DNA from: an uncultured bacterium
GTDB lineage: Bacteria; Acidobacteriota; Thermoanaerobaculia; Multivoradales; JAHZIX01
DNA length: 48,852 nucleotides
Direction: 5' to 3'
Assembly: GCA_965368975.1 (NCBI GenBank)
Contig: CBDUPA010000031.1
Span: 1 to 48,852, forward strand
Shown here one piece after another: positions 8,052 to 46,259 of this stretch. The notes under the pieces were generated by a model. That model saw only the letters and a program-made list of their open reading frames with translations, searched no databases and was not told the origin of the DNA. Position 1 is the stretch's first letter. Each line of letters begins with the position of its first letter. Made by a program: the position numbers and the translations under genes.

Positions 8052-8990
8052 TCAGTCGTCGTTGGAATTCGAGTTGGTCGTCATCTCTGTCTGTGCATCT
8101 GTCTCTTCTTGGAAGACCGCATCTTCCGGGGAGACCGCCTCTTTTTGAGAGAGCAGTCCAAGCAACCACGAAGCCTGCCAGCGCTCCTCCCGAGCCCAGG
8201 TCTCGGGCGAAGTCCAGCCTGCCACCGCGGCACGGCAGCGCAGCGCCTCGACCCCGGCGGCCAGGTCTTCGGCCTCCTGCTGCCAGAGCTTGCTATAGCC
8301 ACCCAGCTCTTCGCGGCCACTCACCAGCACCGGCTGCACCTCGGTACTGATCTGGCGCACCACCTGGCTCCACCAGACCTCGGCACGGCTCCGCGTCTGC
8401 GTGACGGCACCGAGTACCGACGACTCGAGCCGCACCCGACTGCCCTCGGCGAAGGCCTGCGGGTCACCGATCCAGAGCTGCAGCGCAAGTGCCATCAGCA
8501 GGCTCGCCGCCAGTGCCCAGCGCGGCTCACGTAGGCTGCGCGGCAGTCTTTGCTGCTGGCGCGGCTTCTTGCGTGCCACGGCCGGCAGACGGAACACCAG
8601 GCGCGCCGGCAGTTCCAGACGCGGCAAGTGCACCGCTGCCTCTAGCGCTGCGACCACTGTCTGGCAGCGCGCACAGGCGTCGACGTGACGGTGCAGGGCA
8701 ACCATCTCCGACGACACTGGCTTGGGCGCTGGCCCGGCGCCGTCGGTTTCCAGCAACTCGTTCCAGCGTCGGTCGACGTCGCGGCACAGCACGATCTGCC
8801 GCGGCAAGGCGCGCAGCCGCTCCATCAGTGCCGCCGATGGCTCCAGCTCGGGCACGCCGGACCAAGCAGTAACGGCCTGTGGCCGGTCTATCCGAGGCGC
8901 GGGCTGTAACCACTCTCGAAAGGCTTGCCATGCCTGCCGTGGCAGGCGCCGCAGCGTTTCATGCATCGACAGTGCATCCGTTCGCTTCAT
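8052..8990 (-). CDS. Putative anti-sigma factor (zf-HC2-like HxxxCxxC plus TM helix)
   Basis: HVDACARC motif, hydrophobic WALAASLLMALALQLW, immediately downstream of the ECF sigma factor. Confidence 0.75.
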   Translation of the reverse strand: MKRTDALSMHETLRRLPRQAWQAFREWLQPAPRIDRPQAVTAWSGVPELEPSAALMERLRALPRQIVLCRDVDRRWNELLETDGAGPAPKPVSSEMVALHRHVDACARCQTVVAALEAAVHLPRLELPARLVFRLPAVARKKPRQQQRLPRSLREPRWALAASLLMALALQLWIGDPQAFAEGSRVRLESSVLGAVTQTRSRAEVWWSQVVRQISTEVQPVLVSGREELGGYSKLWQQEAEDLAAGVEALRCRAAVAGWTSPETWAREERWQASWLLGLLSQKEAVSPEDAVFQEETDAQTEMTTNSNSNDD

Positions 8991-26908: not shown

Positions 26909-28684
26909 TCAAGCCGAGGCGAGCGCCTCTTCCAGTTGCTGACGGCGGTACAGATCCGCGTACAGACCGCCGTTCTCTACCAGTTCTTCGTGCCGGCCGC
27001 GCTCCGAGATGCGGCCGTCTTCGAGCACCAGGATCAAGTCGGCCTGCTGCACCGCCGAAATGCGGTGCGAGACCAGGAACACCGTGCGCCCCTGGAATAC
27101 CTGGCGCAGGTGGCCGAGGATGCGTTCCTCGGTCTGGGCGTCGACGGCGGACAGGCAATCGTCGAGCAACAGCAGGCGCGGCTGGCGCAGCAGAGCCCGC
27201 GCGATGGCCACGCGCTGCTTCTGGCCCCCCGACAGGGTGATGCCGCGCTCCCCCACTACAGTGTCGAGCCCCTTGGGCAGAAACTCGAGGTCGTCGTCCA
27301 GGCCGGCGCGGTGTGCCGCTTCCCGGATGTCGTCCTCGCTGGCGTCCGGCACGCCGAAGGCGATGTTCTCGCGCACGGTGGCCGAGAACAGGAAGGTCTC
27401 CTGCGTCACCATGCCGATATGCCCACGCAGAGTGGCCAAGGGCAGACGCCGTACGTCGATACCGTCGATGAACAGGCTGTCCGGCGGTGGATCGATCAGC
27501 CGCGGCAGCAGTGACAAGAGTGTGCTCTTGCCGGCCCCAGTGCGCCCCACCAAGGCCACAGTGGTGCCCGCGGGAACCGCCAGGTCGATGTCCTGCAGCA
27601 CGCGGGGGCCGTGGTTCCCGTCGCCGGCTTCGCTGTCGCTGTTCGCATACGAGAAGTCGAGTTTGCGGAAAGCGACGTCGCCGCGCAGGCCATCGACCTG
27701 GATCGGCGACGGATCGTCGCGGATCTCGGGCTCGGTGGCGAGCACACCGTGAATGCGGCTCATCGACGCTGCACCACGCTGTACCAGGTTGATCACCCAA
27801 CCGATGGCGATCATCGGCCAGATCAGCTTCTGCAGGAAGAGGTTGAACTGGACGAACTCACCGACCGAGATCTGCCCCAGGTAGGTGATCGTACCGCCGT
27901 ACGCCAGCACGGCCACGAAGCCGAGTCCAACCAGCATGCGCAGGAGCGGCTGGAAGGCGGCGGACCACAAGATCAAGCCGCGGTTGCGCTCGACATACTC
28001 GGCATTGAGACCGCGGAAGTCTTCGACCTCGTGCGGCTCCTGGACGTAGGCGCGGACCACGCGCGCTCCGCTGAGGTTCTCCTGCACCTTGCTGGAAAGC
28101 GTCGAGTACTGCTCCTGCACCTGCTGGAAGTGGTGGTGGATGTGACTGCCGAACTCGCGCGTCGCCAGTGCGACCAGTGGCATGGCGCACAGTGCGATGA
28201 GAGTCAGCGAGCCGTGGATGCGTCCCATCAGGATCAGGCAGCCGATGCCGGAGAACAGCGTGTTGGCGCTGTACATGATCGCCGGCCCGCAGATCTGGCG
28301 CACCGCCTCTAGATCGTTGGTGGCACGCGCCATCAGATCACCGGTCGGATGGTCGTGGTAGAAGCTCTGCGGCAGTGCCTGCAAGTGCTGGTAGTAGTCG
28401 TTGCGCAGGTCGAACTCGACCTCGCGGCTCATCGCTACCAGCAACATCCGGTGGCCGTAGCTGAACACCCCTTGCACCAGCGCGATAGCGAGCAGCAGCC
28501 CGGCATAGCGCAGCAGCGTGCCGGCGCTCAGCTCGTTGTACAGCGTGTCGATCGCGCTGCCGACGACGAGTGGCGACAACAGACCAAGGCCCGCCATGCA
28601 GACCACACACAAGAGCCCCAGCAGCAAACGCCCGCGGTGACGGGCAAAGTACGGCAGCAGATAGAGCAGGGCCTGGGTTTGCAT
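26909..28684 (-). CDS. ABC exporter, fused permease/ATPase (MdlA/YheI-like)
   Basis: TGDLMARATND; Walker A GRTGAGKS; LSGGQKQR; LLLDDCLSAVD. Confidence 0.95.
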   Translation of the reverse strand: MQTQALLYLLPYFARHRGRLLLGLLCVVCMAGLGLLSPLVVGSAIDTLYNELSAGTLLRYAGLLLAIALVQGVFSYGHRMLLVAMSREVEFDLRNDYYQHLQALPQSFYHDHPTGDLMARATNDLEAVRQICGPAIMYSANTLFSGIGCLILMGRIHGSLTLIALCAMPLVALATREFGSHIHHHFQQVQEQYSTLSSKVQENLSGARVVRAYVQEPHEVEDFRGLNAEYVERNRGLILWSAAFQPLLRMLVGLGFVAVLAYGGTITYLGQISVGEFVQFNLFLQKLIWPMIAIGWVINLVQRGAASMSRIHGVLATEPEIRDDPSPIQVDGLRGDVAFRKLDFSYANSDSEAGDGNHGPRVLQDIDLAVPAGTTVALVGRTGAGKSTLLSLLPRLIDPPPDSLFIDGIDVRRLPLATLRGHIGMVTQETFLFSATVRENIAFGVPDASEDDIREAAHRAGLDDDLEFLPKGLDTVVGERGITLSGGQKQRVAIARALLRQPRLLLLDDCLSAVDAQTEERILGHLRQVFQGRTVFLVSHRISAVQQADLILVLEDGRISERGRHEELVENGGLYADLYRRQQLEEALASA

Positions 28685-30714: not shown

Positions 30715-31722
30715 ATGAGTCACATCCGTATCCCTCGTTCCTGGGAGCTAGCCGAAGCCCAGGCCACTGACGAGTCCGCCTACCTCGACCGGCGGCAAGT
30801 GCTACGCGGTCTGGGCCTGGGAACGCTGGGCATGAGTCTCAATCTGAGCATCGCGGGCTGTGTCGAGTCGGCACCCTCGGCTGGCGACAATGGCGCAGGC
30901 GGCAAGCTGGCACCCGCTGTCGGCAACCGCTTCGACGACGTCTTCCCCGCAGATCGCAACAAGGCCTTCAAGCTCGAAGGCGGCCGTCGCCTGACCCCCG
31001 AGGACATTGCCAGTGGCTACAACAACTTCTACGAGTTCACCACCGACAAGGAACGGGTGTGGGAGCTGGCACAGGGCTACAAAGTCGACCCGTGGAAGGT
31101 CGAGGTTGGCGGCCTGGTCCAGCAGCCGCGTACCCTGGACCTCGACGACTTCTTCACCCGCTTCCCGCTCGAGGAGCGCCTCTACCGCTTCCGCTGCGTC
31201 GAACGCTGGGCCATGCAGGTGCCCTGGACCGGCTTCCCGCTACACCGGCTGATCGACTACCTGGAACCGCTGTCGAGCGCCAAGTACGTCGCCTTCCACA
31301 CCTTCCTCGACCGCAGCCTGCCGGGCGTCGGCAATGGCCCCTGGTACCCGTGGCCCTACACCGAGGGTCTACGCCTGGATGAGGCGCGGCACGAGCTGGC
31401 CTTCGTGGCGGTCGGCATCTACGGGCACGGACTCCCGATGCAGCACGGTGCACCCTGGCGCGTGATCGTGCCGTGGAAGTATGGCTACAAGAGCCCCAAA
31501 TCGGTCATGCGCATCGAGTTCACCGCCGAGCAGCCGTCCACGTTCTGGAACGACTTCCAGCCTAGTGAATATGGCTTCTACTCCAACATCGATCCGGGCA
31601 AGCCGCACCCGCGCTGGAGCCAGGCACTCGAGACCGACATCGGCACGGGTCACCGGCGCGACACGCGGCTCTACAACGGCTACGACGAGGTCGCCTCGCT
31701 CTACGACGGCTCCGAAGCCTGA
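30715..31722 (+). CDS. msrP: Protein-methionine-sulfoxide reductase catalytic subunit
   Basis: Tat motif DRRQVL; YNNFYEF, EERLYRFRCVERW, YTEGLRLDEA, VPWKYGYKS, EYGFYSN, HPRWSQA. Confidence 0.95.
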   Translation: MSHIRIPRSWELAEAQATDESAYLDRRQVLRGLGLGTLGMSLNLSIAGCVESAPSAGDNGAGGKLAPAVGNRFDDVFPADRNKAFKLEGGRRLTPEDIASGYNNFYEFTTDKERVWELAQGYKVDPWKVEVGGLVQQPRTLDLDDFFTRFPLEERLYRFRCVERWAMQVPWTGFPLHRLIDYLEPLSSAKYVAFHTFLDRSLPGVGNGPWYPWPYTEGLRLDEARHELAFVAVGIYGHGLPMQHGAPWRVIVPWKYGYKSPKSVMRIEFTAEQPSTFWNDFQPSEYGFYSNIDPGKPHPRWSQALETDIGTGHRRDTRLYNGYDEVASLYDGSEA

Positions 31723-34085
31723 AAGCTCAGAGACGGCGCGCCCGGCTCGGGGTCGAGTTGCCGTAGCAGGTGCGCGCAATCCTCGCGCTGCGCCGCCGCG
31801 CGTCGCAAGACCGACACCGGCGCTGCCAGACCGTCTTGCGCTTCGAGTTCGGTCAGGGACAGTCCGGCCAACCGGACTTGGTGCAGCAAGTTCGCCAGCA
31901 GCCACCAGGTGTCGGCATCGTCGAGAGCGTCGGGTAGGTACGCGAGGGCGCGCCGACACAAGGCTTGGCGCGTAGACTCGTCGATCTCTCCACTGCTGTC
32001 CAGGTAGCCGACCAGAGCTTCGAAGCGCAAGGCAGGATGTGCCTCCTGGTGCCCCTCGGAGGTCTCTTCCGCCGCATCCTCGCCGACCGCCGCGAGTTCC
32101 AGCGCCTGTGCGTAGGCTTGTGCGGCATCGTCGCCTTCTCCCAGGTGAAGGCCCGAGCGCGCCACGGCCAGTGCCACGCTGAGCATGGTGTCGCGGACGC
32201 CGTCTTCGAGCGCCGATTCGATCGCATCGTTGAGCCAGGTCTGCGCCGCGGTGGCCTTGGAGCGCAGGGCGTCGATCTCCCCGCGCAACGCCAGCAAGTG
32301 CGTGCGCTCGTCGCGTACCTGCGGATCGTCGATGCGCGTGCAGCGTCCCAGGAGTTGGTCCAGGAGTGCCGCCGCCACTGCCTGGCGACCGGCACGGCGG
32401 GCGGCAGCCACGCGGAACAGGGTCAAGTCGCGCAGGAACGGCGGATCCCCCAGCTGGCCGCGCAACGCCGACGCCTCGGTGAAGTGCGCGTAGGCATTCT
32501 CGGCTCGACCGAGGCGGTATTCGAGATCGGCCGCGTGCACCGTGTAGTGCAACCAACGCAGCGCATCCTGCTCTGTCTGCGCCGCGGCAGCCCCCTCCAA
32601 CGCTTTGGGCAACGCTGCCGACAAGCGCAGCTGCTCACGGTACAGCACCAGCCAGGCCCGATTCTCGAACCGCACCAAGGCCGGCACGTGCTCGGCCAGC
32701 TCGTCACTGCGCCGCTTCCATTCCGCGACCTCGTCGATCGACGCTTCGCCACCGCGCAGGAGCAGAAGGGCTCCCAGATTGTCGGCCAGCAGGGATCGCG
32801 TGTAAGCCAGCTCGCGCAGCAAGGGATCTTTGGATGTTGCCGCCGGCGCTGGCGGCATCTCGGCATCCACCAGTGTGAACGCCTGTCGGCAATCCTCGAC
32901 CGCCTCCTCGACCCGCTCCATTCCCATCAGCAGGTAGGCGCGAATGTTGCGCCCCCAGGCCTCCAAGTGCACCGCGCGGCGGGCGCCGTGCGCCACAGCA
33001 CCGCGTTGTGCTTCGTCGATCGCTCGGTTGGCCCACTCCAGCGCCGCCGATCGCTGCTTCAGGCGTCGTCCGAGCACGACCGCCAGACGATAGGCGGTGA
33101 CGCTCAGGAGTGCTGCCTGATCGCTGGTGGCTTCGGGCTCCACCTGGTGACTCCAGGAGGCCATCAGGTGCCGCTGGAGAAAATGTCCCAGGGGCAGGTT
33201 GCCGTCCGAGCGAAACTGGCGATTGTGTGCCGCCAACGCCACGATTCCGTGCACTTCCGCGAGCTGCGAGCTTGTCAGCTGCGGTGGGACCTGTGCCTCG
33301 ACCCGTTCGAGCAGCGCCAGGCCTTGCCGCAACGCCGCTGTGAAAGCGAAACCGGCAAAGGCGTCGCGAACTCCAGCGAGTAGCTGGAGGACCGGCCGCT
33401 CGGGGGCGCCCTCGTCGTCGAGCTGACGCCCCAGAGCCGCGAAAGCAGCCGCCGGGCCCACCGCCGGCAAGGTCTCGATGCGCGTGGTCTCGAGCGTGCG
33501 CAGTCCCAAGACCAGGCGCCAGACGTCGTTCGGCGGTAGTCTCCAGGTGAGACCGTCCGGATCCGGCGGCTCTTGCGCGGCCTGGGGATCGAAGCCGGCG
33601 ACCAGGTCCGGTGCGGCATCCGGGAAGCGCCGGATCAAACGGCGCAAGGCTGACAAGCTTTCGCGGTCCAGCAGACTGAGATCCGGGATCACCAGGGTCA
33701 GCGATGGTGCCAGCGCGCACAGATCCCGCAGCAGCACCGCCCAACGCTCGAACAGGGGGTGCTGAACCAGCAAATTGTGACTCAGGTGTGAGAGTCGATC
33801 ACCCCCGAGTTGCGCGGCGTCGCGGGCCTCTTCGTCGGTCAGCTCCCGGCCGAGGCCATCAGGTCCAGCGCCCAACCCCAGGTAGGCCACCGCCGGATCT
33901 GTCTCCAAGACACCAGCTACAGCAGCACCGTGCTGCGCACGCAACCCACCGATCAGCCGATGAAGGCCAGCCCAAGGCCGAGTGTCGTACGGTGGTGCCA
34001 GCGCTAGCCAAGCGTCCCCCTGCGTCACCAGCTCCGCACAATGCCCATGCAGGCGCTCGGATGTCCCTTCCAGCAGCGTGATCAT
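31701..34085 (-). CDS. TPR-repeat protein (794 aa) with degenerate NTPase-like N-terminal region
   Basis: GAGGGAAGG before ATG 34085. TPR-like helices AALEWANRAIDEA, VEEAVEDCRQAFTL, LGRAENAYAHFTEA, AAQAYAQALELA. LTLVIPDLSLLDRESLSALRRL resembles the Walker B region of AAA_16/STAND proteins. Confidence 0.72.
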   Translation of the reverse strand: MITLLEGTSERLHGHCAELVTQGDAWLALAPPYDTRPWAGLHRLIGGLRAQHGAAVAGVLETDPAVAYLGLGAGPDGLGRELTDEEARDAAQLGGDRLSHLSHNLLVQHPLFERWAVLLRDLCALAPSLTLVIPDLSLLDRESLSALRRLIRRFPDAAPDLVAGFDPQAAQEPPDPDGLTWRLPPNDVWRLVLGLRTLETTRIETLPAVGPAAAFAALGRQLDDEGAPERPVLQLLAGVRDAFAGFAFTAALRQGLALLERVEAQVPPQLTSSQLAEVHGIVALAAHNRQFRSDGNLPLGHFLQRHLMASWSHQVEPEATSDQAALLSVTAYRLAVVLGRRLKQRSAALEWANRAIDEAQRGAVAHGARRAVHLEAWGRNIRAYLLMGMERVEEAVEDCRQAFTLVDAEMPPAPAATSKDPLLRELAYTRSLLADNLGALLLLRGGEASIDEVAEWKRRSDELAEHVPALVRFENRAWLVLYREQLRLSAALPKALEGAAAAQTEQDALRWLHYTVHAADLEYRLGRAENAYAHFTEASALRGQLGDPPFLRDLTLFRVAAARRAGRQAVAAALLDQLLGRCTRIDDPQVRDERTHLLALRGEIDALRSKATAAQTWLNDAIESALEDGVRDTMLSVALAVARSGLHLGEGDDAAQAYAQALELAAVGEDAAEETSEGHQEAHPALRFEALVGYLDSSGEIDESTRQALCRRALAYLPDALDDADTWWLLANLLHQVRLAGLSLTELEAQDGLAAPVSVLRRAAAQREDCAHLLRQLDPEPGAPSLSFQASEPS

Positions 34086-34164
34086 TTGAACCCTTCCCTC
34101 CGACCGAGGGGATGACAATGGAAACCATGAAGACGAGAAGTCAGGTCAAGGAGAACAATGCAAA

Positions 34165-34196
34165 CGGGCTCCGGCGACAGACAGTGCCGGAGCCCG
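34165..34196 (-). terminator. 11-bp perfect hairpin, terminator or attenuator after the peptide genes
   Basis: cgggctccggc-N10-gccggagcccg, followed on the minus strand by TTTGCATTGTT. Confidence 0.7.
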
Positions 34197-34229
34197 CGTA
34201 GGTTTCAGCCGGGACGAGTCAGATCGACC

Positions 34230-34397
34230 TCAGGCCAGCGCGTCCTGCGGGTAGTTGAAGTGAATGGCGCAGGTCTCGGGATCGATTCTCTCGCCTTCCA
34301 AACCAGCCGTCACGGTACGCAGCGCGTTCGCGGACAGGCGCGAGGCGGCGGTGGCGGTGGAACGAACGGCCTTGGCATCGAGCTTACGGATCTTCAT
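34230..34397 (-). CDS. Small precursor-like peptide 2 (55 aa; not in the ORF track)
   Basis: Manual translation MKIRKLDAKAVRSTATAASRLSANALRTVTAGLEGERIDPETCAIHFNYPQDALA*; AAGGAG RBS; clear paralog of the neighbouring peptide. Confidence 0.85.
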   Translation of the reverse strand: MKIRKLDAKAVRSTATAASRLSANALRTVTAGLEGERIDPETCAIHFNYPQDALA

Positions 34398-34421
34398 GCT
34401 GCTTCTCCTTGAGCGGCGCCC

Positions 34422-34586
34422 TCAGGCGAGGGCATCTTGAATGTAATAGTCGTGAATGGCGCAAATCTCAGGATCTACCTCACGACCAGCAGTGATGCGA
34501 CGCAAGTCGGCCTGGCTCAGGCGGGTCGCGGACGACATGCGGCAAGTGAGTTTGATCTGGTCACGGTTCAGGTCTCGAAGCTTCAT
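34422..34586 (-). CDS. Small precursor-like peptide 1 (54 aa)
   Basis: MKLRDLNRDQIKLTCRMSSATRLSQADLRRITAGREVDPEICAIHDYYIQDALA*; GGAGGAG RBS. Confidence 0.85.
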   Translation of the reverse strand: MKLRDLNRDQIKLTCRMSSATRLSQADLRRITAGREVDPEICAIHDYYIQDALA

Positions 34587-34723
34587 CAGTACTCCTCCAA
34601 AGTAGCCGGGAACCAGCACAGCCGGAGCCCGGGGTCAGCAGACGGAACGGCGGGCCTCCAAGATTAGCGCATCGGGCACATCAGCCGCCAGCTGTGCGGA
34701 TGAGTTCGGATACTATCAACACC

Positions 34724-35488
34724 ATGCACAACGACCCAACGTCCGCAACCCCGAGCAAGGTTGTCCGGGCTGAAGACAGCTCAGCCGAGACCTTCGCCGG
34801 AATCGTTCGGAGGCGGCGTTCGATCCGCAAGTTCGCCCCAAACGTCGAGATCCCGGAAGCGGTGATGAACGAATGCCTCGACCTGGCACTCCTTGCTGCC
34901 AACTCGAGCAACCTGCAACCGTGGGAGTTCTACTGGGTGCGTACGCCGGAACTCAAGGCGCAGTTCGGACCAGCCTGCCTGGATCAGAACGCGGCCAAGA
35001 CGGCGGCAGAACTGGTGGTTCTGGTCGCGCGGCGGGATACATGGAAGCGCAACCGGGACGAGTTGATGCAGTTGCTGCAGCAGGAGGGCGACGTGCCGGA
35101 GATCGTCCACAAGTACTACACCAAGCTGGTTCCGTTCATGTACAACCAAGGCCCGCTGGGGCTCTTCGGCTTTCTCAAACGCCTGATGTTCTTCTTCGCC
35201 GGCCTCGGACGGCCGGTCCCACGAGGGCCCGTCAGCCAAGCGGACATGCGCACCTGGGCGGTCAAGAGTACGGCACTGGCCGCGGAGAACCTGATGCTGG
35301 CGCTGAGCGCGCACGGCTTCGACAGCTGCCCGATGGAAGGCTTCGACGGACGCCGCGTGGCGCGCTTGCTGCACCTACCGCGGGGAGCCGAAGTGGTGAT
35401 GGTGCTCGCCGCTGGCAAGGGTGTGCCCGAAGGCGTCTACGGACCGCGGGTGCGCCTGCCGCGCGAGCGGGTGATCTTCGAGGTCTGA
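34724..35488 (+). CDS. Nitroreductase family protein
   Basis: RRRSIRKF, AANSSNLQPWEF, AAENLMLA, DSCPMEGFD. Start could be 34700; TACTAT 7 nt before 34724 suggests a leaderless start. Confidence 0.92.
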   Translation: MHNDPTSATPSKVVRAEDSSAETFAGIVRRRRSIRKFAPNVEIPEAVMNECLDLALLAANSSNLQPWEFYWVRTPELKAQFGPACLDQNAAKTAAELVVLVARRDTWKRNRDELMQLLQQEGDVPEIVHKYYTKLVPFMYNQGPLGLFGFLKRLMFFFAGLGRPVPRGPVSQADMRTWAVKSTALAAENLMLALSAHGFDSCPMEGFDGRRVARLLHLPRGAEVVMVLAAGKGVPEGVYGPRVRLPRERVIFEV

Positions 35489-36224: not shown

Positions 36225-36304
36225 CCGTACCGACGATGTAGCCTCACACCAAAGGAAGCCTGGCGGGTCCCAAATCCCTCCGGCGGTATGCTAACTTGAT
36301 GGTA

Positions 36305-37486
36305 ATGACCAGCCCTGCCACTCCTCCGCGCATCCCTGTGCGAACTGACAAGCCCAAGCGCCAGTTCATCCAGATCGCCGACCAGCAGCTGATCCCTCTG
36401 CCACCGGGCGTCTCGGTGGTGGACTGGCAGCTCGAGAAGGCGAATTGGCAGAACCCGCGCATCCGCGCGTTCCTCGGCTGCATCCGCATGCTCGGAAATG
36501 TACTGGAGAGCAACTACGCGATCCTGCACTGCTCGCCGGAACGGTTGCTCGAGATCTGGCGCAAGGTGACACGGGTCGCCGAGCTGATCCGCAACAACAT
36601 CTCACCGCTATTGGGCCACAAGTCCTGCATTCCGAAGCTCGATGACGCGGTGGAGACGGCGCGGACGTCACTGAGCATGCTCGATCACGATGTACTCCGG
36701 CAGCTCGACGACTACCCAGCCGAGCAAATCCCAGCCAATAGCGTGATGCAGATACGCAAGCTGCTGTGCGTCTCCATCGGCCAGTTGCACTCCTTCCTGC
36801 AAGACACTTTCGGCCACATCATCGCCAACGACCCGCGCAGCCTGCACGACGCCGACTACTTCCTCTCCAAGCGCTTCCCTCAAGACATCGACGAGGCAGA
36901 GTGGCTGCACTCGACGGTGGTGCGCCTATACAGCTACATGGAGACGGTGGAAGGTATCCGCGAGCGCGCGCTCGAGAGCATGATAGACGAGCTGCGGAGA
37001 GGCCAGCGCTTGCTCAACGACAGTACCTGGGACGAGGCAACGACAGTCCTGACCCTGCTGATGCAGGATCTGACATCGAAGATCAAGGGTATCTTGGCCC
37101 TGCGCGGGATCCGCTTCTACGAGATGGAGATCCTGGATCGCTACGCTGACGAGATTCCCACCAAGTGCACCACCATCCTGGAACTGCACCGGACGGGCAC
37201 AGCCAGCATTCGCGAGATCCGCGACACCGTCGGCACCTCCAGCGACGAGCTGAAAATGGCCAAACGCCTGGAGAAGGCGGTGCAATTGCGTATTTCTCGG
37301 CGCATCGCCGACCTGATGAGCGAGGTCAACAAGAACTTGCGGGACCTGATCGCCTTCCTGCCGCTGTGGATGGAAGGCATCGAGAAGCGGCGGGCTCTGA
37401 TCCTGAAGCGGCACGGTCACGAGGACGACATGCCACCGCGGCAGCTCGATGACGTCGAGAGTCTCGACGAGACTTTGCCGGCTTGA
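36305..37486 (+). CDS. Hypothetical soluble alpha-helical protein
   Basis: Long ORF with protein-like composition and GC3 bias; TATGCT -10-like element just upstream; no motif recognised. Confidence 0.8.
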   Translation: MTSPATPPRIPVRTDKPKRQFIQIADQQLIPLPPGVSVVDWQLEKANWQNPRIRAFLGCIRMLGNVLESNYAILHCSPERLLEIWRKVTRVAELIRNNISPLLGHKSCIPKLDDAVETARTSLSMLDHDVLRQLDDYPAEQIPANSVMQIRKLLCVSIGQLHSFLQDTFGHIIANDPRSLHDADYFLSKRFPQDIDEAEWLHSTVVRLYSYMETVEGIRERALESMIDELRRGQRLLNDSTWDEATTVLTLLMQDLTSKIKGILALRGIRFYEMEILDRYADEIPTKCTTILELHRTGTASIREIRDTVGTSSDELKMAKRLEKAVQLRISRRIADLMSEVNKNLRDLIAFLPLWMEGIEKRRALILKRHGHEDDMPPRQLDDVESLDETLPA

Positions 37487-42532: not shown

Positions 42533-43945
42533 TCATCTTCGATCCTCGGACTGGAGTCGATGGCTGGCGGCCAGCGCTCGACCGACAAAGGGATGGTCGG
42601 CGGACAGCCGGACGACATCGAAGAGTACAGCGATCAGCTCCTGATCGTCACCGGCACGGTGAGGATTGTAGAACTCCCACACCAAGTCGCCAGCGCGGGT
42701 GACCTCGAAGGCACGGCCGTTCTCCGACTCGACGATCAGAGTGTTGCCATTGCTCAACCGGTGGCTGGCCCCGAGGGTACGCGAAAAGAAGTCGATCTCA
42801 CGGCTTCCGCCATACTGCCACACTACCTCTCCCGTCCTCGGTGTGAGTTCCAGCAGCCGTGAACGTGCGACGGCCGCCGGGCCGCGCAACGGCCCCTGGT
42901 TGTCGAAGAGCAGAATGCGACCTCCATCCACCAGCGCCGGATCGTGCTGACGACGGAAGGAACCACTCAGCGCCCAGACGATCTGCGCTCGCACAGGATC
43001 GAGAATGGCGATAGCGTCGAGTTCACGGAACGACACCAGCAGGTTGCCGGCTGCGAAAGCCGGATGGGACGTAGCGTATCGACCATCGAGCAGTTCCAAG
43101 GTGTTGGTGTGCAGGATGTCGCCCGCCTCGGGCCGCCGCTCCAGCAGCCCTGCATGGGCCGACCGCTCGAGCGCTTCGAGCAGGGAGATGCGGCGCAGGA
43201 CGACACCGTCCGCGTCGAACTGGGTCGCGAAGTCCTCCAGCACGCCCTTGCTCGGGTGAATGCGCGGCAGCAGTTTCCCATCGCGGTCGAGAACCCAGAT
43301 GTGGCCCTCTGGGGTTCTGGCCAGATCGTGATGGATGCCACCGCGGTGAGCCCACTGCAGGCGTGACCGAGCGTCCAGGTGGATCAGGCCCAGGCCTTCG
43401 AAGATGGCCAGCAGGGAACCGTCCGGTAGCAGCAGCGCACGGCGCCAGTACTCGAGCTTACGGATGGTCCCCGCGTCCTGTGCATAGAGATCCGGCCACA
43501 GAGTTTCCAGGCGGTAGCTCCAGCGGTGGACGACACGACCTCGCAGATCGGTGAGCAGAGCCTCCGGCGCGTGACCGGAAAGCACCAGGTTGAGCCCCGG
43601 CTCGGTACGCTCCGGATCGAAGACGGTGATCTGGGGTTCGTCACCAGCCGGTCGGTAGCCTTGGAGATACGGCAGAACCAGCAGCCGCGCTTGCTCCTCC
43701 GACAAGGTCTTCGGAGCCGCGTGCCGGGCCTGCCGCCACTTGCCTTCGTGCGCTGGATCTCTCGATTCCGGCTCTACCGGTAGGCCACCCGCGGCGACAG
43801 GGCCGGCGTCAGGGTGGTCGGAGACCGGTCCCGCTGCCTGCGGCTCCTTGGGAGCCTCACAGCCCTGCGCCAAGAAGCCAAGGAGTCCGAAACCGACGAG
43901 GGTCACGAGGGACAGGCTTGGGATCAGCCCACGGGATGGTGTCAT
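42533..43945 (-). CDS. Arylsulfotransferase (ASST) family lipoprotein
   Basis: Lipobox-like LAQGC; IHHDL, DILHTNTL, RRQHDP, LLFDN, RLSNGNTLIVES..GRAFEVT..VWEF. Confidence 0.85.
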   Translation of the reverse strand: MTPSRGLIPSLSLVTLVGFGLLGFLAQGCEAPKEPQAAGPVSDHPDAGPVAAGGLPVEPESRDPAHEGKWRQARHAAPKTLSEEQARLLVLPYLQGYRPAGDEPQITVFDPERTEPGLNLVLSGHAPEALLTDLRGRVVHRWSYRLETLWPDLYAQDAGTIRKLEYWRRALLLPDGSLLAIFEGLGLIHLDARSRLQWAHRGGIHHDLARTPEGHIWVLDRDGKLLPRIHPSKGVLEDFATQFDADGVVLRRISLLEALERSAHAGLLERRPEAGDILHTNTLELLDGRYATSHPAFAAGNLLVSFRELDAIAILDPVRAQIVWALSGSFRRQHDPALVDGGRILLFDNQGPLRGPAAVARSRLLELTPRTGEVVWQYGGSREIDFFSRTLGASHRLSNGNTLIVESENGRAFEVTRAGDLVWEFYNPHRAGDDQELIAVLFDVVRLSADHPFVGRALAASHRLQSEDRR

Positions 43946-43976
43946 CACTTGAGAAAGTAGCGCACTGGTCCCGTTA

Positions 43977-46259
43977 TCAAACCGCGCTATTGGCCCGCGG
44001 TACTCGCGACTCTCGTTCCGGAGTCGCGGGGGGCGGCGGTGGCGGATTCGGCTGGTCCGGACCGGGAACGGTGACCACCAGGGGCGCGCTGGTGCGCGTC
44101 CCTTCCGCGCAGTTGCGCACCTCGGCCACGACGATATAGGTGCCCGGCTCCGCGTAGGTGAATCGGGGTGCCTTTCCCTCGTTGGGATCGCTGCTCCAAG
44201 GCTCGAAATCCTGACCACCCCCGAGATCGAAGTTCCAGCGCCACTCGACCGCTCCAGGAGCGTCGAGATCGAACTGTACGGTGCGGCTCGTAGGCTGCGC
44301 GGGGTAGCCCTCGTAGGTCGGCACAAACGCCTGATCGCCAGGGAGGTCGGGCAACCACTGGATCGGCACCAACGGGCTGGTCAGCGTCGCGGCGCCTTGA
44401 TTGTTGCTGACCGTGACCTCGGCGGTGTAGATCTGGCCGCCTCGCGCCTCGGGCGGCGCCGGTTCCCAGACGAAGGTGCTGCTGTCGTCACCCACTGCCA
44501 CCAAATGCCCTTGCTGGCTGTACACCTGCCAGGCATAGGTCAGCGGCGGCTCACCGGTCACACCTTCCGCCTGGAAGGTGATCGGTTGGCACAGCATAGC
44601 CGTCATGGGAGTTACGGAAAGGCCGGTGACTTGGGGTGGCCCTTCGCGGACGATAATCTGCCGGCTCGTGGTGCCACTGCCAACCCCGTTGGTCACTTGC
44701 AAGGTCACCGTCTTGGTGCCGGTACTGAAGAAGGTCACTGCAGGGTCTTCGGCGTCCGAGGTGGCGGGATCGCCATCGGGCTCGAAGCTCCACGAGTAGC
44801 TGCTCGGCAGACCTGTAGAAGCATCGGCGAAGGCGACCTCCAAACCAGAATACACATCCTCTGGAGACCAGGTGAAGTCGGCCAGAGGCGGCAGAACTTC
44901 CGTGCGCTGGTGAACGTCGAACAAGCCCTTGGCGACGCGGTAGAAATAGGTACCGTTGAACTTTCCCGCCTGCGGCTGGACGTTGTTGAAACCGTTCACA
45001 CCGCCACTGCGGTAGTACCACGACCAGTAGCTGACCTCTTCGCCGCCGAGCACTTCCACTTCCTGCGGCGTGATGTCCCGCGGCGCCCAGGCGTTGCTGA
45101 CATCGTCGAGCCACTCTTCCTGTGGGAAGCTCGGACACACGGAGCCGGTCCCCCAATAGAGGAATGGCGTACCGTCGGCCCGCGAAAAGGTGACCGTGCC
45201 TAACCCAGGCTGCGCCGGTGAGGTTGCGGGCCGAGACCACACCAGCGCGGGTGTGCAGGGACCATTGGCAATACAGCTGGCGTCATAGATGCTGTGCTGG
45301 CCAGCCTCACGGACGGCCAGGTAGTAAGCACCGCTCTGCTTCCACATGGCGACACCATAGAGAACGCGCCCCTGCAGCGCATCCGTCACCTGGCGGGGCT
45401 GGCTCGGATCCCGGACGTCCCAAATCTCGAGACCGCTTGGATTGCCGAGCGACGTCACAGCTACGAAGTGGTCGACCCCATCGACAAAGTTGGCGGCGCT
45501 GCGACTGCCAATCCTACCGAGGAAGACCCCTGGACAGTCGCTCGCGACGAGGCCGGGCTGCCCTTCGATGCAGGGCTGTGGCAGTGGCTTGGCCGCGTCC
45601 AGATCATAGGCAAACAGACCACCATCGGCCTGCGTGGCCGCCAGGAAGGCGTAGGCTCGCCCGTCGATCGCAGCGGTGTAGACCTGATTACCTTGGCGGG
45701 TCAGCGAGGTGTCAGCGCCGTGATCCTGGTACAGCAGACGCGGCAGACTACGGTCAGTGGTGTCGAAAACCATCAAACCTGTACCGTGCCAGCCAGCCAG
45801 CGCGACCAGGTCGTCGCGTCCCGGTGGGGCGTCGACATCTTGAAACACCAGGAAGGCGTGCGATTCGACACCCCAGGTAAGGCCCATGCTGTCGATGCTC
45901 AGGCTGCTCAACAATGCCGGGCGCCCGGGCGCGGTCTTGCTATTCCATAGCTGAAGGCGCAGGTTGTTGGCGACGAAGATCGTGTCGGCTTCGATGTCGA
46001 TGGCCTGGAAGTACGGATTGTCGACCCAGGAACCGATCTCTCGAAACGCGGTGTTGTCGCGGTTCTGCGGCAGGCGCGCGGTGTCCATCGGACGCAGACT
46101 GCCCCAGAGTTGCTTCGGCACAGCAACGGCGGGTGTATGACTCGCCGACCAGCCCGCGCAAGAACCGGCGCTCTGCGCCAGAGCTGGCTGGAGACATATC
46201 GCTGCCGTGGCGATCAGGGTGCAAGCGAAGAAGTGGGCAAGGTAGCTGGGGCTACGCAT
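43977..46259 (-). CDS. Secreted PKD-domain protein with N-terminal beta-propeller-like region
   Basis: Signal peptide; LVIVD-like blades (GLMVFDTTD, GLEIWDVRDPSQP); PKD motifs FADASTGLPSSYSWSF and FTYAEPGTYIVVAEVRN; Pro-rich tail. Confidence 0.82.
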   Translation of the reverse strand: MRSPSYLAHFFACTLIATAAICLQPALAQSAGSCAGWSASHTPAVAVPKQLWGSLRPMDTARLPQNRDNTAFREIGSWVDNPYFQAIDIEADTIFVANNLRLQLWNSKTAPGRPALLSSLSIDSMGLTWGVESHAFLVFQDVDAPPGRDDLVALAGWHGTGLMVFDTTDRSLPRLLYQDHGADTSLTRQGNQVYTAAIDGRAYAFLAATQADGGLFAYDLDAAKPLPQPCIEGQPGLVASDCPGVFLGRIGSRSAANFVDGVDHFVAVTSLGNPSGLEIWDVRDPSQPRQVTDALQGRVLYGVAMWKQSGAYYLAVREAGQHSIYDASCIANGPCTPALVWSRPATSPAQPGLGTVTFSRADGTPFLYWGTGSVCPSFPQEEWLDDVSNAWAPRDITPQEVEVLGGEEVSYWSWYYRSGGVNGFNNVQPQAGKFNGTYFYRVAKGLFDVHQRTEVLPPLADFTWSPEDVYSGLEVAFADASTGLPSSYSWSFEPDGDPATSDAEDPAVTFFSTGTKTVTLQVTNGVGSGTTSRQIIVREGPPQVTGLSVTPMTAMLCQPITFQAEGVTGEPPLTYAWQVYSQQGHLVAVGDDSSTFVWEPAPPEARGGQIYTAEVTVSNNQGAATLTSPLVPIQWLPDLPGDQAFVPTYEGYPAQPTSRTVQFDLDAPGAVEWRWNFDLGGGQDFEPWSSDPNEGKAPRFTYAEPGTYIVVAEVRNCAEGTRTSAPLVVTVPGPDQPNPPPPPPATPERESRVPRANSAV

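Follow-up and report, generated by a model that had tools for sequence, protein, structure and literature searches.

What do two very short, similar genes that stand in tandem in an uncultured acidobacterium encode, and which proteins would their products work with? The window analysed here is the whole of contig C31, 48,852 bases from a source genome of 7.1 Mb that is assembled in 59 contigs and 99.3% complete. On its minus strand, between positions 34230 and 34586, an earlier note had picked out two paralogous leader-core peptides of 54 and 55 aa with strong ribosome-binding sites, and had proposed them as a candidate new family of ribosomally synthesised peptides that undergo post-translational modification (RiPPs) or of signalling peptides. 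We find that the pair belongs to a conserved peptide family whose genes are always followed by the gene of a large tetratricopeptide repeat (TPR) protein. Our preferred reading, to which we give a probability of roughly 0.5, is that the peptides are precursors with a double-glycine-type leader, recognised by the TPR partner and then exported through a C39 peptidase system.

Peptide A (54 aa; 34422..34586, minus strand) runs from an ATG at 34586 to a stop at 34422, within a listed open reading frame (ORF) that is open farther upstream, to a GTG at 34619, and peptide B (55 aa; 34230..34397, minus strand) runs from 34397 down to 34230; both were defined by ORF and sequence. Ribosome-binding sites can be read 5 nt ahead of the ATG of peptide A (GGAGGAG, 34592..34598, minus strand) and 7 nt ahead of that of peptide B (AAGGAG, 34405..34410, minus strand). 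The two peptides are 54% identical over 54 aa, and the aligned pattern first written for them proved correct on re-alignment. The leader of peptide A comprises residues 1-34, ending ...RLSQADLRRITAG, and is followed by a core of subtype C-A-I-H-D-Y-Y-I, while that of peptide B comprises residues 1-32, ending ...RLSANALRTVTAG, with a core of subtype C-A-I-H-F-N-Y-P. The source genome holds just these two copies: in a six-frame search of its 7.1 Mb, peptide B finds peptide A at E=3.0e-7 and the next-best place at E=0.69.

Pfam and NCBIfam contain no match to either peptide at thresholds as loose as E<=1, nor does PADLOC, and peptide A alone as query matched none of 60 relatives from the same order. 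A word-indexed search of 5.8 billion proteins returned a single relative of peptide A, P0001, at 91% identity. The homologues that a new family calls for were found with a profile search at E<=0.001 over all 1.84 billion protein representatives, which gave 17 proteins. Sixteen of these were inspected (P0018, of 1548 aa, was left out); 14 are peptides of 54-102 aa with the same architecture, and the other two, P0011 and P0016, are repetitive proteins of ~215 aa. Peptides A and B themselves match the family profile at E=2.3e-25 and E=6.3e-22, respectively. Scans of contigs added further loci from Acidobacteriota metagenome-assembled genomes (MAGs; L015-L017) and from metagenomes (L019 and L020). 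A Fibrobacteraceae locus, L018, is not a member of the family, as its match lies inside a long ORF and no partner gene accompanies it.

The family architecture consists of a leader of 32-35 aa (34 aa in 17/21 peptides), a linker of 7-28 residues, and a conserved C-terminal core of 18 aa with the pattern (V/I)-(D/P)-P-E-x-C-[AE]-I-H-[FD]-[YN]-Y. Seven positions are invariant in the 16 aligned members (M1, L6, L28, C42, I44, H45 and Y48), so the Cys, His and Tyr that had been called invariant from the two window peptides alone are retained, with the Ile of C-x-I-H-x-x-Y, in 16/16. The distance from the core Cys to the C-terminus is 13 residues in all 21 peptides of the C-A-I-H type. Two core subtypes occur, D-Y-Y-[ILF] and F-[YN]-Y-P, and the window has one of each. 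Peptide B is as close to foreign members of the F-Y-Y-P type (49-55% identity) as it is to peptide A (52% in this comparison), which argues that the tandem pair is old rather than a recent duplication. A comparison of non-synonymous and synonymous rates, which had also been proposed, was possible between the L019 and L020 peptides: 8 non-synonymous changes, all of them outside the core, and 6 synonymous ones separate the two, and the ratio is about 0.37 over few sites (dN 0.061, dS 0.166). As the homologues confirm the C-x-I-H-x-x-Y pattern, the ORFs are not chance; they are coding sequences under conservation, and the family to which they belong is small and had no annotation before.

The main functional clue lies directly downstream of peptide B and was missed by the earlier note, which had suggested listing the conserved neighbours. 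Here, at 31701..34085 on the minus strand, is a gene for a TPR protein of 794 aa, counted from an ATG at 34085; its ORF is open back to a TTG at 34118, and the ATG at 34085 fits the M-I-x-[IL]-L-R-G start of the homologues. Homologues of this partner, of ~750-800 aa, directly follow the peptide gene in 8/8 loci, namely the six loci of the C-A-I-H type (the window, L015, L016, L017, L019 and L020) and the two divergent loci L029/L037 and L030/L036. When 10 window proteins were compared with six loci, the partner was the sole match, at 39-43% identity, in five of them, the sixth being the non-member L018. An all-against-all ORF comparison of distant loci found nothing else in common, and the other neighbours at homologous loci are unrelated (succinate dehydrogenase, a transposase, DUF418 and a TetR regulator).

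Genome samples show the same co-occurrence. Across 400 genomes of the phylum the peptide profile matched nowhere (0/400), and the profile of the partner N-terminal domain matched once, marginally (1/400, E=4.9e-4). Across 200 genomes of the order around MAG G448, the peptide profile matched at five places in four genomes, and the partner N-terminal profile matched at the same five places in the same four genomes and nowhere else in the sample. All four genomes fall in one family, where the module is present in 4/24 genomes. The partner is thus an obligate neighbour of the peptide gene, and together they constitute a two-gene module. Two further observations concern the metagenomic loci. L020 carries a DDE transposase gene (PF01609; 6272-8056, plus strand) in an insertion of ~2.7 kb between the gene for the iron-sulfur subunit of succinate dehydrogenase and the peptide gene, which is missing from the roughly 90%-identical L019. 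In L019, the start of the partner (M-I-T-L-L..., at ~8520-8545) is out of frame with the rest, reflecting a frameshift or an assembly error of the metagenome contig.

The two divergent loci, which came from leader-only matches in the order-level profile search, separate the leader from the core. The L029/L037 peptide has the family leader, ending ...V-A-G-G, and then an unrelated core with three Cys, and the L030/L036 peptide has a leader ending ...T-I-G-G and then an unrelated core with four Cys. Their partner proteins are 33-37% identical to that of the window and keep the motifs S-H-L-S-H-N, A-H-N-R-Q-F and W-x-x-N-I-R. Leader and partner are therefore seen to travel together, while the core is exchangeable. 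A conserved leader with a variable core beside a protein that tracks the leader is a feature of RiPPs, and it is found here on the strength of L029 and L030.

The same two loci carry export genes. A stand-alone C39 peptidase gene (PF03412, E=7.8e-24) lies directly upstream of the peptide gene in L036, and in L037 the peptide-partner pair is followed by genes for a GAF-HlyD fusion, a C39 exporter of the ATP-binding cassette (ABC) type and a second HlyD protein; these C39 genes tie the module physically to C39 processing and export. The best NCBIfam model for the L037 exporter is the NHLP bacteriocin exporter TIGR03796, below its cut-off (626 bits, and 626-632 bits across the exporters, vs 853). 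On the window contig the sole ABC exporter, at 26909-28684, is without a C39 domain. The search for C39-ABC transporters that the earlier note had proposed was positive for the source genome, with three such genes, all off this contig. Two paralogous clusters there combine GAF-HlyD and C39-ABC genes: L038 on C13 (~119.1-126.2 kb) and L039 on C8 (~190.0-197.7 kb). Besides the GAF-HlyD fusion and the C39-ABC exporter, each includes an HlyD adaptor and one more gene, which is of the ABC type or unknown. Their exporters, at ~122.2-124.5 kb on C13 and ~192.2-194.6 kb on C8, are 58% (C13) and 54% (C8) identical to that of L037, and a motif scan found no small ORF of the Gly-Gly (GG) type beside either cluster. 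The fusion of a cytoplasmic GAF domain to an HlyD adaptor is itself unusual. In the three MAGs the C39 search gave 3, 4 and 6 matches; these counts carry little weight, the same search being positive in 7/14 control genomes. A motif scan of the source genome listed other small ORFs with GG leaders, at C13:209508 and 209755 (plus strand), C13:106894 (minus), C12:60998 (minus) and C17:44422 (minus); the tandem pair on C13 has cores that begin G-S-C-V-A-W-S-C and have a lanthipeptide-like look.

Does the leader itself resemble those that C39 peptidases cut, as had been claimed? In the part of PMC6363468 that describes them, double-glycine leaders end in Gly-Gly, Gly-Ala or Gly-Ser and carry Leu(-12)-X3-Glu(-8)-Leu(-7), with position -4 hydrophobic as well, along one helical face. 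We numbered the leader positions of the 21 family peptides back from the small-residue pair. Position -12 is Leu in 20/21 and Met in the remaining one, position -7 is Leu in 21/21, and position -4 is Ile or Val in 19/21, with Leu and Ala in the other two, so that the family has the -12/-7/-4 spacing given in that part of the source. Position -8 is Glu or Asp in 14/21, with Asp in peptide A and Ala in peptide B. The terminal pair is more varied: GG in 8 peptides, GA in 2, AG in 6, SG in 1, AA in 3 and AM in 1. The spacing thus fits a double-glycine leader, and C39 genes are linked at the two divergent loci; the strict ending quoted above is not that of peptides A and B. On the whole, the window peptides are likely to work like double-glycine leader peptides. 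The leader also has a conserved N-terminal half, M-K-[IL]-x-x-L-x-x-x-[AV]-[VI]-R-S-T, for which C39 recognition has no need.

This additional half, together with the non-canonical pairs (AG, SG, AA, AM) at the putative cut site of 11/21 peptides, invites the reading that the peptides are never exported and that each is a small regulatory or inhibitory subunit, docking on the TPR protein through its N-terminal helix and C-terminal motif and only partly resembling a GG-leader peptide. The variable linker between two conserved ends would then look like a tether, and an exporter that is not adjacent in 6/8 loci would cause no difficulty. We nevertheless regard this explanation as unlikely: the -12/-7/-4 spacing is exact in 21/21 peptides, a C39 peptidase stands upstream in one locus and GAF-HlyD, C39-ABC and HlyD genes downstream in another, and one would hardly expect a fixed docking motif to be replaceable, as this core is, by unrelated Cys-rich sequences.

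What kind of protein is the partner? The window protein has no Pfam or NCBIfam match of its own, a search of a protein atlas with the whole sequence returned TPR clusters only, and no PADLOC defence-system model matches it. Including the window protein, 29 homologues of 655-805 aa were collected, of which 25 match TPR families of Pfam and nine match PF17874 (TPR_MalT). An AlphaFold2 model built from 28 sequences has a mean predicted local distance difference test (pLDDT) score of 88.9 and a predicted template modelling (pTM) score of 0.89, and places a five-stranded alpha/beta domain at residues 1-230 ahead of ~550 residues of paired helices, which are MalT-type TPR repeats. In a fold search with the whole model the matches were TPR superhelices, with PH0952 (PDB 6mfv), from the signal transduction ATPases with numerous domains (STAND), at rank 9 (E=7e-6). 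Modelled alone (pLDDT 73.9), the N-terminal domain found its best matches, weak ones, exclusively among P-loop NTPases (PcrA/UvrD, RdrA and ABC ATPases, with E>=1.4e-3 and template modelling score <=0.38), and Walker A (G-x4-G-K-[ST]) is present in 0/28 aligned homologues anywhere in the protein. The model thus hints, weakly, that residues 1-230 may be a P-loop-NTPase-like domain without Walker A. PDB sequence searches with the peptide profile and with this domain gave nothing of meaning, since the designed helical proteins and L28 that came up all stood above E=1. The partner has no signal peptide, transmembrane segment or long hydrophobic run, and its invariant polar motifs include S-H-L-S-H-N (99-104), A-H-N-R-Q-F (286-291), Y-R...R-R (332-341) and W-x-x-N-I-R (377-382); N436 is invariant as well.

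A small peptide gene beside a large cytoplasmic TPR protein, as in 8/8 loci, brings to mind the pheromone-receptor pairs of the RRNPP type in Firmicutes, in which case the peptide would be exported, trimmed to its C-terminal part and taken up again to bind in the TPR groove of the partner, which would act on other proteins through its N-terminal domain. The fixed 13-residue distance from Cys to C-terminus in 21/21 peptides suits recognition of a peptide end, and Asn, Trp and Arg residues that never vary are scattered over the TPR region. The partner profile even matches RapH and NprR, weakly (E=1e-3 and 3.5e-3), although these matches are limited to generic TPR repeats. Other observations make such a pair doubtful. 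Although three core types with no relation to one another occur, the leader stays conserved and the invariant residues of the partner stay the same, which points to recognition of the leader and argues against recognition of the mature peptide. No DNA-binding Pfam family or other known output domain occurs in the partner or its homologues (29 proteins). BamA, TamB and O-antigen ligase genes on the contig indicate a diderm cell, and no gene here supports the re-import of a peptide of at least 18 aa across two membranes. RRNPP pro-peptides, moreover, use Sec-type signals, and their genes usually come after the receptor gene.

The preferred reading, of precursors with a double-glycine-type leader that the TPR partner recognises ahead of C39 export, can be laid out in four steps. 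First, the peptides would be translated from a short bicistronic message, as their ribosome-binding sites and a G+C-rich hairpin in the spacer between peptide B and the partner gene (34166..34195, minus strand) suggest. The region 34120-34232(-) folds at -41.5 kcal/mol (z=-3.18); the hairpin has no clean T-run, is uncalled by a consensus terminator scan, and might serve for partial termination or for processing. The spacer with the hairpin is missing from the homologous loci, where the gap between peptide and partner genes is 8-45 nt. A reading of this region as an RNA element was dropped, since an Rfam scan of 33500-35200 gave two matches only, both under their gathering scores (E=0.12 and 0.42). 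Second, the partner would recognise the conserved leader, mainly through its N-terminal half; strict co-occurrence, and the conservation of leader and partner while the core changes, both speak for this. A predicted complex of the partner with peptide A, both given as alignments, scored 0.20 and 0.02 where the mark was 0.32, without controls, and counts neither way. Third, the partner would either modify the core or hold and deliver the precursor. Fourth, a C39-ABC exporter encoded elsewhere, with its GAF-HlyD and HlyD adaptors, would cut after the small pair (Ala-Gly here) and export the C-terminal 20-23 residues across the diderm envelope, a step suggested by the gene linkage in the two divergent loci. 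The released peptide could have an antimicrobial, signalling or metal-binding role.

Several observations weigh against this reading. A C39 gene is adjacent in only 2/8 loci (of the other six, two are on contigs of just 2.3 and 3.5 kb), and C39 genes are common, as the control genomes showed. The canonical Gly at -2 is missing in 11/21 peptides, both of the window included, and in peptides A and B the Ala-Gly ending departs from the strict Gly-Gly, Gly-Ala or Gly-Ser motif, as set out in the portion of the source drawn on above. The partner has no recognisable catalytic domain, and its N-terminal domain has no fold match at E<=0.001. The C-A-I-H core, finally, is far more conserved than is usual for the cores of bacteriocins.

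That last contrast bears on a simpler explanation, in which the peptides are plain, unmodified precursors of class II bacteriocins or microcins and the TPR protein regulates their production or protects the producer. The leader type and the exporter linkage would fit, as would the several other GG-leader peptides of the source genome and the lack of any known tailoring enzyme on the contig or conserved at the homologous loci. We consider it quite improbable, as the strict co-occurrence of leader and partner and the extra conserved half of the leader suggest direct recognition, and the partner is without a DNA-binding domain. Bacteriocins are also variable and usually cationic or hydrophobic; the acidic products of this family, with 20-23 aa, one Cys and a near-invariant core, differ from them.

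Are the peptides RiPPs, then? The leader-core build speaks for the proposal. Of the enzymes that the earlier note had named for a search alongside the exporters, namely radical S-adenosylmethionine enzymes, YcaO proteins and cytochromes P450, none is present on the 48.9-kb contig or shared by the homologous loci, and the same holds for any other known tailoring enzyme. As peptides with a truly modified core, they are thus no more than candidate RiPPs. A nitroreductase-family gene divergent from the peptides (34694-35488, plus strand; PF00881, E=2.5e-35) was considered as a tailoring enzyme and rejected, as it is missing from five homologous loci; with only the partner conserved there, it probably falls outside the unit. 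None of the specific NCBIfam equivalogs matches it above cut-off (E=0.14 for the SagB-type model). Two further genes of the window may be recorded. A 396-aa ORF at 36296-37486 (plus strand) is without a match in Pfam, PADLOC or NCBIfam, where the best model stands at E=0.033, and is not conserved at the homologous loci. An arylsulfotransferase-family gene (42533-44326, minus strand; PF14269, E=3.2e-23, and PF05935) lies ~8 kb from the peptides, whose cores have a conserved Tyr-Tyr flanked by acidic residues, and is separated from them by genes for a major facilitator superfamily protein, a glycosyltransferase and a Wzt-like ABC protein.

One possibility for the third step is that the partner is itself a new leader-dependent maturase that modifies the Cys/His/Tyr-rich cores, for example by a Cys-aromatic or His-Tyr crosslink made with the histidines of S-H-L-S-H-N and A-H-N-R-Q-F. 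We hold this to be a tentative idea rather than a probable one. Were it true, the module would represent a new RiPP class in Acidobacteriota, with a repeat protein that genome-mining tools ignore as its sole dedicated enzyme.

Known RiPP enzymes encoded on another contig offer a far more remote explanation. C22 of the source genome has a PqqD-type gene (E=9.3e-19) next to one of the transglutaminase type (E=2.1e-19) (C22:18896-19583, minus strand; loci L010 and L012), a pair that constitutes the split B1/B2 of a lasso-peptide cluster; two further genes with PqqD domains are on C27 and C8. Lasso precursors have Thr at -2, Gly, Ala, Ser or Cys at +1 and Asp or Glu at +7 to +9, and are accompanied by cyclase and peptidase genes. 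Both window peptides happen to fit this pattern, with T-A-G giving Thr(-2) and Gly(+1) and with Glu7 in A or Asp8 in B for ring closure, so they could in principle be lasso precursors served in trans by the C22 genes. Across the family, Thr occupies the key position in just 5/21 members, the linker of 7-28 residues leaves no acceptor Asp or Glu at a fixed place, and the conserved partner in 8/8 loci is the TPR protein, with no lasso genes at any of them; we therefore think this reading highly improbable.

Peptide genes this short routinely go unannotated, and mining tools look for known enzymes, of which this module has none. Even so, the module looks like a pathway dedicated to peptides, with its conserved leader, cores that can be exchanged, a partner that co-occurs strictly and C39 export genes that are linked to it. 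Should the TPR partner modify or chaperone the peptides, leader recognition would have gained a new type of protein; should it sense them, it would act as a cytoplasmic peptide receptor with TPR repeats, in a diderm phylum from which no such receptor is known. Either way, the two genes offer a small and testable entry point to how Acidobacteriota, a major phylum of soil and marine habitats that has been poorly studied, make and use peptides.

How does the module compare with known systems? Literature searches, with supplements outside their scope, returned nothing that describes this peptide family or a TPR partner of GG-leader peptides. The closest likeness on the peptide side is to GG-leader/C39-ABC systems (class II bacteriocins, microcins and NHLP/Nif11), with which the family shares the -12/-7/-4 residues and the terminal small pair of the leader, to the extent that the consulted part of the leader description covers them. 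The linkage of a C39 peptidase, or of C39-ABC and HlyD genes, in two family loci is a further likeness. NHLP/Nif11 systems also have precursors encoded away from the exporter. Unlike the members of these systems, neither the peptides nor the partner match NCBIfam or Pfam models, the exporters fall under the TIGR03796 cut-off, the cut site in the window would be Ala-Gly, and the leader has its additional conserved N-terminal half. To our knowledge, an obligate partner that combines a P-loop-like domain lacking Walker A with TPR repeats is not known from any GG-leader/C39-ABC system.

RRNPP systems (Rap-Phr, NprR-NprX and PlcR-PapR) resemble the module in the pairing of a cytoplasmic TPR protein with a small pro-peptide that is conserved in its C-terminal part, and RapH and NprR are matched weakly by the partner profile. 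Their receptors are half as large as the partner, and a P-loop-like N-terminal domain replaces the helix-turn-helix or three-helix bundle, so the helix-turn-helix or Rap-type output domain that marks an RRNPP receptor is absent from it. The host is a diderm member of the Acidobacteriota, a leader of the double-glycine type stands in place of a Sec signal, and the partner tracks the leader and not the core. STAND NTPases such as MalT and PH0952 (PDB 6mfv) share the domain order, in which a long superhelix of TPR repeats comes after an alpha/beta domain of nucleotide-binding-like type, as well as PF17874, which is found in 9/29 partner homologues. They differ in that a functional P-loop defines them, whereas Walker A occurs in 0/28 aligned homologues of the partner; the partner also has no effector or DNA-binding domain, its N-terminal fold match is not significant, and it has an obligate upstream peptide gene. 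The module thus shares parts with each of these systems and departs from each in at least one defining feature, and on present sequence comparisons it would appear to be a new arrangement, in which peptides with a GG-type leader are joined to a new obligate partner.

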